From a virus (lineage: Duplodnaviria; Caudoviricetes), in the IMG/VR virus record IMGVR_UViG_3300049172_000088, positions 19,686 to 83,685 of that record: a stretch of 64,000 nt of DNA; one strand, given 5' to 3'. How positions within the stretch are numbered: the stretch's first letter is position 1; each line of letters begins with the position of its first letter. Position numbers and translations under genes: made by a program. The notes below the pieces were generated by a model. The model had not been told where the DNA came from. It was given only the letters and a program-made list of their open reading frames with translations, and did not search any database. Shown here one piece after another: positions 19,261 to 20,521 of the stretch.

Positions 19261-19473
19261 TCAGGCGGCCTGTTGAGCGGGGCGGATGTACGGGGCGAGG
19301 AGCGCGGCCAGGCGAGTGCACTGCTCCTCGGTGAGGGGCGGATCGTGCTCGCCGTCGCGCCAGCCGGCCTCGAAGGCTTGCTGCGGCGTGGTGCAGATCT
19401 CCTGCCTGCCACGCCCCGCCGCACCGAGACGCGCCTTGCCGTACCGCGCCGGGCCTGGGTCGTTAGTGGTCAC
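19261..19473 (-). CDS. Small hypothetical protein carrying an in-frame GGY-NN unit in its 5' part
   Basis: Coupled GTG start; TPQQAFEAGW..EHDPPLT. Confidence 0.55.
   Translation of the reverse strand: MTTNDPGPARYGKARLGAAGRGRQEICTTPQQAFEAGWRDGEHDPPLTEEQCTRLAALLAPYIRPAQQAA
19404..19457 (-). ncRNA. Solo GGY-NN guide-like unit A
   Basis: Nine 5-nt-phased GGC/GGT/GTC triplets ending in GGCAGGC; 54 nt, the modal array unit length. Confidence 0.7.
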
Positions 19474-19892
19474 GCCGCGTCCTCACCGACGTCGCGGCGG
19501 ACCATGGCGTAGAACTCGGAGAACTGCTCGTAGCGACGCCGGAGGGCCTTCCATTCGCGCTCCATGTCCTTGAGCAGGAGCTGCGCCGTGAACGGGTCCG
19601 TGGTCACCTTGTCCACGGGCTCGTACACGTGGCCCTTCTCCGACCGAACGGCGTGGAACGCGCGCACGCTCTGCTCGGGGTTCTTCTCGTCGGCCTCGCG
19701 GTAGACGATCCGAACCGACCGGATGAGCTGGTGCGCCTGCTCGCGTCGCCACGCCTCGCCGGCGACCGCGTCGTTCCACTCGAACCGGTCGTGCAGCGGG
19801 TGCTGCTCGTCGCGAGCTTCGTCCACCACCAGGGCGGGCGTGAGCTGCGCGTGCCGGTCGTAGATGGCCTGGAGCTGCTCTCGGAGACTCAC
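19470..19892 (-). CDS. Partner protein translationally coupled to the RAMP-like gene
   Basis: LTPALVVDEARDEQHPLHDRFEWND..AGE.WRREQA.QLIR; GTGA overlap. Confidence 0.7.
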   Translation of the reverse strand: MSLREQLQAIYDRHAQLTPALVVDEARDEQHPLHDRFEWNDAVAGEAWRREQAHQLIRSVRIVYREADEKNPEQSVRAFHAVRSEKGHVYEPVDKVTTDPFTAQLLLKDMEREWKALRRRYEQFSEFYAMVRRDVGEDAA

Positions 19893-20521
19893 GAGCTGAG
19901 GACCTCCACTTCGCGGGTCGGGTCGATCTTGTAGGTGCCGAAGTCGCCGTCCCGCTCCGGCCGCCACTCGCCGACGCCGACGCCCATGCCGCCAGCGTCG
20001 ATCAGCGACAGGACAGAGCCGCGGGTGAGGGCGGAGGTGACGTAGGTGACTTCCAGGACGGCGGACCACTCGCGGAACTCGGGCCGGTACCTGAGGTCGG
20101 TGCCGCCGCGGCCGACGGTGACGACGTCCTCGCGCATCTGGGCCTCGCCGTCGATGCGGGTGAGGGCGCGGCCGTCGTCGCCGACCTCGCCGCCGAAGAA
20201 CAGGAACTGCTTGAGGGCGGTCATGGTGACGCCGGAGTAGAAGCGGGCGCCGCCGATGGTGGCGGCCTTGAACGCGATCGACGGGAAGCCGGGCGAACCG
20301 TCCTTGAGCCGGTAGTAGGCGGCCTCGTACTCGGCGTGCGGGTCCTTCGGCTGCTTGGGCGACTTGCGGCCCTGCATCGCGTCGAGCATGGCCTTTTTGG
20401 CCTTTTCGGAGAATCTGTGGACGATCAGAGGCGTTGTGCCCACGATCGGGACAGAGATCGTTTCCGCCGCGATCCGGTCAATCTGGACGATCGCGTCGTC
20501 CGACTTTCGGGCAGCACACAT
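19889..20521 (-). CDS. RAMP/Cas7-like RNA-binding protein (Vipr-like), 210 aa
   Basis: GAAAGG RBS; N-terminal strand I.GTTPLIVH; GFPSIAFKAA; C-terminal Gly-rich loop GGMGVGVGEWRP..DG.FGTY typical of RAMP folds; adjacent to array. Confidence 0.7.
   Translation of the reverse strand: MCAARKSDDAIVQIDRIAAETISVPIVGTTPLIVHRFSEKAKKAMLDAMQGRKSPKQPKDPHAEYEAAYYRLKDGSPGFPSIAFKAATIGGARFYSGVTMTALKQFLFFGGEVGDDGRALTRIDGEAQMREDVVTVGRGGTDLRYRPEFREWSAVLEVTYVTSALTRGSVLSLIDAGGMGVGVGEWRPERDGDFGTYKIDPTREVEVLSS

Follow-up and report, generated by a model that had tools for sequence, protein, structure and literature searches.

VIPR (Viral Interference Programmable Repeat) is a phage-borne relative of CRISPR that was first described in 2026 preprints (bioRxiv 10.64898/2026.04.26.720920; 10.64898/2026.04.26.720927). 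In the E. coli phage SUSP1, VIPR was shown experimentally to be a nuclease-free filament on guide RNA that silences by binding (bioRxiv 10.64898/2026.04.26.720920; 10.64898/2026.04.26.720927), and the SUSP1 Vipr protein binds the GGY bases of the guide through residues H17, R138, D177, W178, and R179 (VIPR preprints; PDB 36pp). The published survey comprises 664 loci, types I-VII, and the accessory classes vap1-6; confirmation by sRNA-seq is stated for the ribozyme-interspersed and single-vrRNA architectures, and the staggered architecture is not listed among those so confirmed (bioRxiv 10.64898/2026.04.26.720920). VIPR is very recent in RNA-guided biology, and its experimental study has so far been limited to the E. 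coli and Pseudomonas systems.

We are highly confident that the locus analyzed here, which lies in a window of 64,000 nucleotides (the whole stretch of DNA under study), is a VIPR system that a temperate phage of actinobacteria carries in its early operon and that would act by the filament mechanism proposed below. VIPR is already described and named, and the locus adds one further member. The analysis itself establishes homology, fold, retention of the contact residues, the anatomy of the array, co-occurrence, and target matches in silico. Its viral context is evident from a serine integrase, a repressor/cro pair, matches to phage families, and an IMG/VR-type virus record. The operon runs from a promoter-like site through a cro-like gene, a zinc-ribbon ORF, an 18-unit array, vipr, and vap to a solo guide unit, and the features of this region are:

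22036..22065, minus strand: promoter-like site upstream of the cro-like gene (TTGAAA, 18-nt spacer, TAAACT), a consensus match only
21757..22029, minus strand: cro-like XRE helix-turn-helix gene that opens the array-vipr-vap operon (Pfam HTH_31, E 8.5e-10)
21637..21760, minus strand: small RanBP2-like zinc-ribbon ORF at the array head (weak Pfam Zn_ribbon_RanBP match, E 0.004, under the curated cut-off)
20607..21638, minus strand: main vrRNA array of 18 staggered GGY-NN units (register analysis and dynamic-programming parse)
19889..20521, minus strand: vipr, encoding a 210-aa single-RRM RAMP protein, the putative filament subunit (homology, predicted fold)
19470..19892, minus strand: vap-like accessory gene, 140 aa (homologue synteny with vipr)
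19406..19455, minus strand: solo vrRNA unit A, 9 pentamers and GGCAG, just downstream of vap (parse)
22207..22695, plus strand: divergent XRE repressor-like gene (Pfam HTH_31, E 5e-8)
24011..25489, minus strand: large serine recombinase, the prophage integrase that marks the phage context (Pfam Resolvase and Recombinase)

The promoter-like site is the sole sigma-70-like match in 19200-22300, where shuffled sequences average 0.1. Starting at a GTG that overlaps the cro-like stop codon, the zinc-ribbon ORF runs open into the array, so that its 3' end is undefined; a Nonomuraea prophage carries a CxxC...CxxC ORF at the equivalent array-head position.

The vipr gene begins with ATG, and a Shine-Dalgarno-like GAAAGG hexamer lies 9 nt upstream on the minus strand, in agreement with an earlier sequence-only reading that had given this 210-aa gene its own ribosome-binding site. 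The N-terminal strand and Gly-rich loop singled out in that reading, IVGTTPL and GGMGVGVGEWRPERDGDFG, are both present in the 210-aa protein, in which the G-loop is GGMGVGVGEWRP and a beta-hairpin occupies residues 127-149. Homologues of Vipr are ~200-211 aa long and share the starting methionine of the 210-aa form; the family numbers some 3,500 loci. A 623-aa ORF spanning the array into vipr was rejected as a chance open frame rather than a gene; its length is unremarkable because the array has only ~8 stop triplets over three frames. Pfam and NCBIfam searches with Vipr found nothing, and the protein matches PHROG 4652 (unknown function) at 1e-41. The AF2 model (pLDDT 93.4) has the fold of a single-domain Cas7/Csm3-like RAMP, and the best 50 structural matches all belong to the Cas7 family (Csm3, type VII Cas7, Cmr4, and gRAMP) in Foldseek and VIA-align. 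A RAMP/Cas7-like fold had been put forward as the point on which the earlier proposal could be refuted; the model groups with RAMPs of the Cas7 family, the highest Z being 12.2, obtained against Csm3 chain 8do6_E (rmsd 3.7 Å across 159 residues, VIA-align).

At the sequence level, phmmer pairs residues 142-194 of Vipr with residues 134-185 of PDB 36pp_D, the 'SUSP1 Vipr protein', at E 6.7e-5, and the similarity is limited to these C-terminal 53 residues and a short N-terminal strand. Vipr H35, R146, E185, W186, and R187 are aligned with the SUSP1 GGY-binding residues H17, R138, D177, W178, and R179, the third pair being a conservative D-to-E change. R146 and R187 are invariant among 58 Vipr homologues.

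The 140-aa partner that the same reading had described as coupled is indeed so: its GTG start overlaps the vipr TGA (GTGA), and its motif reads HPLHDRFEWND. A vap homologue stands after vipr in 14/14 related loci tested, down to 36% Vipr identity, and next to vipr in 33 of the 34 phage records. In the terms of the VIPR papers, the partner is an accessory gene of the 'vap' kind. It matches PHROG 15946, a phage family of unknown function, at 2e-32, and no Pfam or NCBIfam family was identified; a lone weak match to Cas5a (E 0.16) was set aside as chance. In the AF2 model of Vap (pLDDT 92), three helices and a sheet of four strands precede a C-terminal helix of 40 residues. No PDB match in Foldseek fell below E 0.69, a wide VIA-align search matched just the C-terminal helix, to generic coiled coils (Z 5.7), and the ESM Atlas returned viral hypothetical clusters only. 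The long C-terminal helix suggests oligomerization, and by analogy with vap1 the protein would probably enhance silencing.

The main array lies upstream of vipr on the same strand. Its units are mostly 54 nt long, most being 10 GGY-NN pentamers followed by a GGCA end, and their size ranges from 10 to 15 pentamers with a mode of 11 when the terminal GGCA is counted; these guide lengths fall within the VIPR criterion of ~9-16 repeats. Adjoining units overlap by one G at a GGCA|G junction, giving a spacing of 5n+4. Among the 181 array pentamers, 92% have G at position 1, 77% have G at position 2, and 99% have C or T at position 3; base usage at positions 4-5 is near-uniform. When both strands of the 64-kb window were scanned for in-phase GGY, only the main array and two solo units emerged, unit A and a second unit on the opposite strand:

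33644..33708, plus strand: solo vrRNA unit B, 12 pentamers and GGCAG (parse)

Cas1 was not found in the 83.7-kb virus record (CheckV completeness 93%), and Tandem Repeats Finder detected no array of CRISPR-like repeats, as expected from the earlier remark that cas1 and canonical CRISPR are missing. The lack of Cas1, the lack of CRISPR repeats, and the 5-nt period do not fit a class 1 CRISPR-Cas effector.

The link between vipr and periodic arrays, which had also been named as a refutation test, holds beyond this phage, with same-strand GGY-NN arrays beside vipr homologues in 16/19 related loci. The GGCA|G junction is also seen in Brocalys, UmaThurman, Ecliptus, and one IMG/VR contig, the array of UmaThurman being annotated as protein, and the staggered architecture also flanks vipr homologues in Mycobacterium cluster F and Gordonia phages. 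Some guides are common to the arrays of relatives and others differ. These observations bear on the idea that the 1-kb pentamer region is an element acting as DNA (iterons, a centromere, or curved DNA to which both proteins bind, for instance) rather than a guide array. Such an element would allow for the 5-bp period, roughly half a turn of the helix, and for the lack of an Rfam match in the region. Against it, the repeats lie on the vipr strand in 16/16 array-bearing loci, Vipr belongs to the RNA-binding RAMPs and retains the residues that contact GGY in a solved RNA complex, and the NN bases of the array, read by the published RNA-guide rule, match coding motifs elsewhere. We regard a DNA element as extremely improbable and treat the region as a guide array.

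Filament formation, DNA binding, and silencing at this locus are inferred from the VIPR papers on SUSP1, and the mechanism proposed by this analogy is as follows. The array would be transcribed into GGY-NN pentamers, each bound by one Vipr protomer as in the solved SUSP1 complex. Vipr would keep the GGY bases from pairing and display the two variable bases, so that a filament of ~10 protomers may read double-stranded DNA as NNxNNx with every third base skipped. The 4-nt step at GGCA|G breaks the 5-nt register and would set the limits of the filament, with or without RNA cleavage. The filament is expected to form an R-loop and block transcription without cutting, while Vap may serve as an accessory protein, probably a silencing enhancer on the model of vap1. 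Predicted targets are the catalytic motifs of rival terminases, non-self alleles of neighbor genes including the heads of rival VIPR operons, and possibly host gajA. The minimal filament effector silencing by binding that the sequence-only reading had envisaged gains support here, the mechanism being, by analogy, that shown for SUSP1 VIPR.

Targets were sought with the published NNx rule (1-nt skip), in which the skipped bases fall at codon wobble positions. The guide that bears on terminases is:

20898..20951, minus strand: guide U13 (10 NN), whose reverse complement matches the prophage TerL motif (I/V)DYGTTNPFA

U13 has an exact in-frame match in a prophage terminase large subunit (G045:C75:31311), identified as TerL by Pfam Terminase_6N/6C. 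In 301 genomes it has seven matches at <=1 mismatch, six of them in TerL, and the control pattern has 0; a match in a DUF6879 gene (L029/L034) is probably chance. A separate guide from a related Thermoactinospora prophage matches the Walker B of the same TerL family, in frame at 17-18/20; the best of 187 shuffles scored 17. Both guides are predicted to target catalytic motifs of terminases from rival prophages. All 18 guides of the array were compared with 60-80 kb of sequence surrounding four prophages that carry TerL; U13 alone matched, so there is no convergence of the guides on a single element.

The orientation of the matches is relevant to a different view of the effector, in which a RAMP filament binds or cleaves the transcripts of target genes in the manner of type III Csm3/Cas7. 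The best structural matches of Vipr are RNA-targeting Csm3 and type VII Cas7, and all three in-frame target matches (U11, discussed below, U13, and the Thermoactinospora guide) are inside coding sequences, both of which this view would predict. The match of U11 is sense, whereas those of U13 and the Thermoactinospora guide are antisense, a mixture that fits DNA recognition better than pairing with mRNA. Moreover, the SUSP1 complex, a homologue, binds dsDNA, and its silencing works with either strand (VIPR preprints); the locus has no nuclease partner. We give RNA targeting only a slight chance, and continue with DNA silencing as the preferred reading.

The sole novel lead is a match to Gabija:

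21011..21064, minus strand: guide U11 (10 NN), matching the gajA Walker B motif V-E-E-P-E-A-H-I-H-P

U11 was tested before any other guide, having been picked for its well-formed pentamers and not for its content. Its match in gajA is exact and in frame (20/20, G136:C33:61873), and the GajA identity of the target is established by PADLOC (1e-169) and by Pfam AAA_15 and OLD TOPRIM. In 301 genomes U11 has 23 matches at <=1 mismatch, of which those inspected are gajA-like, as is the shared consensus. An exact NNx search of IMG/VR with U11 gave 0 matches, and no guide other than U11 rose above background on gajA or gajB. By reading bases 1 and 2 of every codon in the GajA Walker B (VEEPEAHIHP), U11 could silence Gabija across many actinobacterial hosts despite wobble variation. 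An anti-Gabija role is possible, as yet unproven; if true, it would make phage RNA-guided silencing an anti-defense weapon, a use so far unreported.

The chance is only a little short of even that the locus is a genuine VIPR aimed only at rival phages and that the gajA match is coincidental. A rough null, derived from ~38 control matches at <=2 mismatches, predicts ~0.025 exact 20-base matches per guide in 301 genomes, and seven guides were searched against outside collections. A Nonomuraea prophage array holds U11 with one NN changed, so the guide may simply be inherited. Transcriptional silencing after infection would leave pre-existing Gabija protein in the cell, and the published VIPR papers report mobile-element targets only. 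On the other side, the match is exact and in frame within the best-conserved motif of gajA, many genomes in the order have a gajA allele at <=1 mismatch from U11, and the two TerL guides fall likewise on catalytic motifs, which suggests a deliberate strategy.

The remaining evidence on guide content comes from matches to neighboring genes, for which one further guide is needed:

21561..21634, minus strand: guide U1 (14 NN), which resembles a non-self allele of the array-head zinc-finger ORF

U1 scores 18/28 against the zinc-finger ORF of the window and 20/28 against its equivalent in the Nonomuraea prophage, the second-best score in each leader being 13; among 251 genomes, none had a close target at up to 3 mismatches. 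Solo unit A matches nearby codons of the phage itself (19364-19389) at 14/18, a score equaled by 3.5% of local shuffles. Solo unit B scores 18/24 against 33488-33522, close to where the adjacent minus-strand gene 32833-33603 (PG_binding_1 domain) has its 5' end; 0/200 local shuffles reach this score, with a null maximum of 15. U1, solo A, and solo B resemble non-self alleles of adjoining genes, and guides placed beside genes whose non-self alleles they match would hint at an origin from local gene copies. No self-target was found in the 83.7-kb record, nor any homologue of the targeted TerL or GajA. Exact NNx searches of IMG/VR with U4, U6, and U3 gave 0 matches, and genome searches gave 0/201 for U6 and 0/151 for U17; targets were assigned in silico to a minority of the guides.

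Taken from these predicted matches, a broader proposal is that some guides target host immunity (U11 on gajA), that the clade targets invariant catalytic motifs (the GajA Walker B, the TerL Walker B, and the TerL nuclease aspartate), and that guides adjoin genes whose non-self alleles they match. The codon-periodic code would then amount to targeting at the level of protein motifs. We advance this proposal tentatively and consider it, as a whole, rather unlikely. Its terminase component is of wider interest, as the target predictions suggest guides aimed at invariant catalytic motifs of rival terminases.

The locus can be placed among known systems at increasing resolution. The Csm3/Cas7 backbones of class 1 CRISPR resemble Vipr in their RRM fold, glycine-rich loop, and thumb, and they polymerize on guide RNA and flip bases at a fixed period. 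They differ in their 6-nt period, as opposed to 5 nt at the locus, and in multi-subunit assemblies with Cas5, Cas10, or Cas8, contiguous spacers, and repeat-spacer arrays with cas1/cas2. Phages also use their own CRISPR-Cas systems or solo arrays against rival elements, as ICP1 does against PLE. Like VIPR, such systems are phage-carried, programmable, and RNA-guided against competing mobile elements, but they cut DNA and acquire spacers via Cas1-Cas2, whereas VIPR silences without cutting. The SUSP1 VIPR (type II; PDB 36pp) shares with the locus a single-domain RAMP, the same GGY-contact residues, a small adjacent accessory gene, and phage-encoded GGY-NN guides of 9-16 repeats, without cas genes and without a nuclease. 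The two Vipr proteins have low similarity, mainly C-terminal (E 6.7e-5), and the host of the locus is a high-GC actinobacterium. SUSP1 vrRNAs are separate ~100-nt transcripts, each with a conserved 3' tail and pseudoknot, whereas the locus has 18 abutting units with a 1-nt overlap; the structured tail and pseudoknot of type II are absent, and the units meet at GGCA|G without conserved sequence between them. This arrangement argues that the locus is not VIPR type II and fits the 'staggered' architecture. In the staggered vrRNA arrays of the VIPR paper (fig. S18), likened here by their text description, the end of one vrRNA starts the next with a 1-nt overlap, which equals GGCA|G. By its parse, the locus appears to display this staggered architecture in full, with 18 abutting and two solo guides, and the presence of the same architecture in the well-studied, tractable Mycobacterium smegmatis cluster F and Gordonia phages offers a ready experimental route.

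The window DNA is 70% GC and belongs to an actinobacterial phage whose source record, an 83.7-kb contig, is 93% complete by CheckV. The sequence-only reading described a 210-residue RAMP/Cas7-like protein with its own ribosome-binding site, an I.GTTPL strand and a C-terminal loop motif, coupled to a 140-residue protein carrying PLH..FEW.D. Both genes are present as described:

20521-19889, minus strand: vipr, 210 aa, ATG start, Shine-Dalgarno-like hexamer GAAAGG upstream, containing IVGTTPL and GGMGVGVGEWRPERDGDFG
19892-19470, minus strand: vap-like partner gene, 140 aa, GTG start overlapping the vipr TGA stop, containing HPLHDRFEWND

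Neither protein has a match in Pfam or NCBIfam; their PHROGs, 4652 for the vipr product (1e-41) and 15946 for the partner (2e-32), are phage families of unknown function. The sole match to the vipr product among PDB sequences (phmmer) is 36pp_D, "SUSP1 Vipr protein" (E 6.7e-5), which led to three 2026 preprints on VIPR (Viral Interference Programmable Repeat) systems. Such a system combines a minimal RAMP protein (Vipr) with an accessory gene (vap) and with vrRNAs of alternating GGY/NN pentamers; double-stranded DNA is recognized by the NN bases alone, with one target base skipped between pairs, and the complex silences transcription (2026 preprints).

The Cas7-like fold, claimed from motifs, was borne out by structure prediction and structural search. 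The AlphaFold2 model of Vipr, built from an alignment of 58 diverse homologues, has a pLDDT of 93.4 and lies nearest to Csm3 and type VII Cas7 proteins (Foldseek, E about 1e-5). All of the top 50 VIA-align entries are Cas7-family RAMPs, and superposition on Csm3 (8do6_E) gives Z 12.2 and rmsd 3.7 Å over 159 residues. The GGY-holding residues seen in the structure of SUSP1 Vipr (H17, R138, D177, W178 and R179) align with H35, R146, E185, W186 and R187 of the window protein; two of the latter, R146 and R187, do not vary across the family alignment. The Vipr family counts 3,538 representatives at 50% clustering.

The partner is modelled (pLDDT 92) with three helices and a four-stranded sheet, followed by a C-terminal helix of 40 residues. 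Foldseek returned no significant match to it, VIA-align matched the long helix alone, to generic coiled coils, and the protein carries no nuclease signature. We take it to be the vap of the window's VIPR clade. By analogy, it is probably an oligomerizing DNA- or complex-binding helper, since vap1 raised protection in the SUSP1 system.

Directly upstream of vipr, on the same strand, lies the guide array, and an in-phase GGY scan of both strands of the 64-kb window found, besides it, two single units and no more:

21638-20607, minus strand: main GGY-NN pentamer array
19455-19406, minus strand: solo unit A, just past the vap-like gene, ending GGCAG
33644-33708, plus strand: solo unit B, ending GGCAG

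Parsing gave 181 pentamers: 92% begin with G, 77% have G at position 2 (most of the others T), 99% have C or T at position 3, and positions 4 and 5 are near uniform. At regular intervals the register loses one base, in each case where GGCA is followed by GG. The array thus resolves into 18 units, most of 54 nt (ten pentamers plus GGCA), which overlap such that the last G of each is the first G of the following unit. An Rfam search of the array region gave no match. A single frame stays open for 623 codons (19889-21760, minus strand), from a zinc-ribbon ORF through the entire array into vipr; this is probably chance, because the pentamers permit few stop triplets, and gene callers will mis-annotate it.

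The pair recurs in Gordonia phages UmaThurman, Pipp, Ecliptus and ODay, in 27 Mycobacterium phage records (cluster F, Cheoctovirus, phage Brocalys among them), in one cyanophage, in prophages of Thermoactinospora rubra and a Nonomuraea species, and in 12 IMG/VR contigs. A partner homologue follows vipr in 14/14 genome and IMG/VR loci tested, with Vipr identity down to 36%. Linkage of the homologues to periodic arrays was likewise found: a same-strand GGY-NN array adjoins vipr in 16 of 19 related loci, placed ahead of vipr, in the vipr-vap gap or past vap. The GGCA|G junction reappears in Brocalys, UmaThurman, Ecliptus and an IMG/VR contig. In UmaThurman (NC_031249), "gp40 hypothetical protein" (33354-33664; 6626-6936 of locus L001) is a staggered GGY-NN vrRNA array and not a protein gene, flanked by vipr (gp39) and vap (gp41). 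In Brocalys (NC_031262; 5641-7061 of locus L002), vipr and vap are gp45 and gp46; the staggered array upstream of them is short, about 200 bp, and the annotated gp45 start probably reaches into it. Ecliptus (OP820472; 5155-7592 of locus L003) carries a vipr-array-vap cassette with its own HTH gene pair; the cassette is inserted with the tail assembly chaperones on one side and the tape measure gene on the other, which suggests a mobile island. Besides their upstream arrays, the Thermoactinospora rubra prophage (4624-4708 and 5125-5204 in locus L004) and the Nonomuraea prophage (4625-4743 in locus L005) have short GGY-NN tracts between vipr and vap and past vap, counterparts of solo unit A.

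Two further features stand at the head of the operon:

22065-22036: promoter-like site, operon start
21637-21760, minus strand: RanBP2-like zinc-ribbon ORF (WTCGKC...CRNC), no stop before the array

The order is promoter-like site, cro-like XRE gene, small zinc-ribbon ORF, array, vipr, vap and solo unit A, with a divergent XRE repressor-like gene and, farther out, a serine integrase; this arrangement places the system in the early lytic operon. It is likewise placed in cluster F mycobacteriophages, where the pair lies between antirepressor and excisionase. The zinc-ribbon ORF is coupled to the cro-like gene through a GTGA overlap, a CxxC...CxxC ORF occupies the equivalent position in the Nonomuraea prophage, and its product might bind GGY RNA or regulate the array. 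Nearby, four tandem diverged paralogues (16367-18120, minus strand) encode predicted proteins sharing an N-terminal ALLK..L..IEA.PE.W.Q motif, and an excisionase-like MerR/HTH_17 gene (18117-18314) lies just upstream of them. The ORF at 18426-19424 (minus strand), with an internal signal-peptide-like start (MKKTLIALMGALALML...) and a weak Lamin Tail Domain match (E 1e-4, under the curated cut-off), may encode a secreted prophage protein.

Three guides were examined for near-copies of their targets next to them. Unit U1 agrees at 18/28 NN bases with the zinc-ribbon ORF that heads its array and at 20/28 with the equivalent Nonomuraea ORF, the next-best score in these leader regions being 13. For solo unit B the match is to the 5' part of the neighbouring lysin-like gene and scores 18/24 (0/200 local shuffles above 15); for solo unit A nearby codons agree at 14/18, a marginal score that 3.5% of shuffles reach. 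Most simply, the three guides would be aimed at these same genes in related rival phages, the phage's own alleles differing enough to escape; for U1 this would mean rival VIPR operons at their head. The sequence of U1 looks like a variant allele of the zinc-ribbon ORF; a search of 251 genomes did not find its exact target allele.

Targets were sought with the published NNx rule on either strand. In the phage's own 83.7-kb record, no guide scored above shuffled controls, and the VIPR paper (bioRxiv 10.64898/2026.04.26.720920) likewise reports no self-targeting. The reverse complement of U13 exactly matches (I/V)DYGTTNPFA in a prophage terminase large subunit; 301 genomes gave seven matches with at most one mismatch, six in this gene, and a control pattern gave none. 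A separate Thermoactinospora prophage guide matches, in frame, the Walker B box (MTA[AV]GAYVDE) of the same terminase family at 17-18/20 in 4/5 loci (maximum of 187 shuffles, 17). The rival terminase is a convincing target because two guides from two prophages converge on its catalytic motifs. A second target is a candidate:

21064-21011: guide U11, exact 20/20 match in one sampled genome of the same order as Nonomuraea genome G002

When up to one mismatch is allowed, U11 has 23 matches in 301 genomes. Those inspected, and the consensus of the rest, fall on one in-frame motif, (V/I)EEPEAH(L/M/I)HP, which is the Walker B box encoded by gajA, a Gabija defence gene (PADLOC GajA 1e-169; Pfam AAA_15 and OLD TOPRIM). 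From the tool's control counts, an estimated 0.025 or so exact matches per guide would arise by chance in that sample. The Nonomuraea array has U11 with one dinucleotide altered, at the motif's variable residue, but may keep it by common descent. Silencing transcription would leave in place any Gabija protein made beforehand, and no VIPR paper mentions a defence gene as target. A guide aimed at host gajA is thus an unproven, testable lead, resting on less than the terminase target. U3, U4, U6 and U17 have no target in IMG/VR or the sampled genomes.

VIPR itself has been known since April 2026 and is not new with this locus, which is a further family member, with a staggered array, carried by an actinobacterial temperate phage; the sequence-only reading was correct in observation and inference alike. 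The array of the locus has the architecture named "staggered array with 1-nt overlapping vrRNAs" in the VIPR paper (bioRxiv 10.64898/2026.04.26.720920), which states sRNA-seq confirmation for two other architectures and does not say the same of this one. The locus is not of SUSP1 type II, because the conserved tail between units is absent. Self-versus-rival discrimination comparable to that proposed for U1 and the solo units, and anti-VIPR guides, are described for SUSP1-like phages (third 2026 VIPR preprint). To these systems the present analysis adds the complete array anatomy, the array's presence in tractable actinophages and its mis-annotation as a protein in UmaThurman, the terminase targets, and the Gabija lead.
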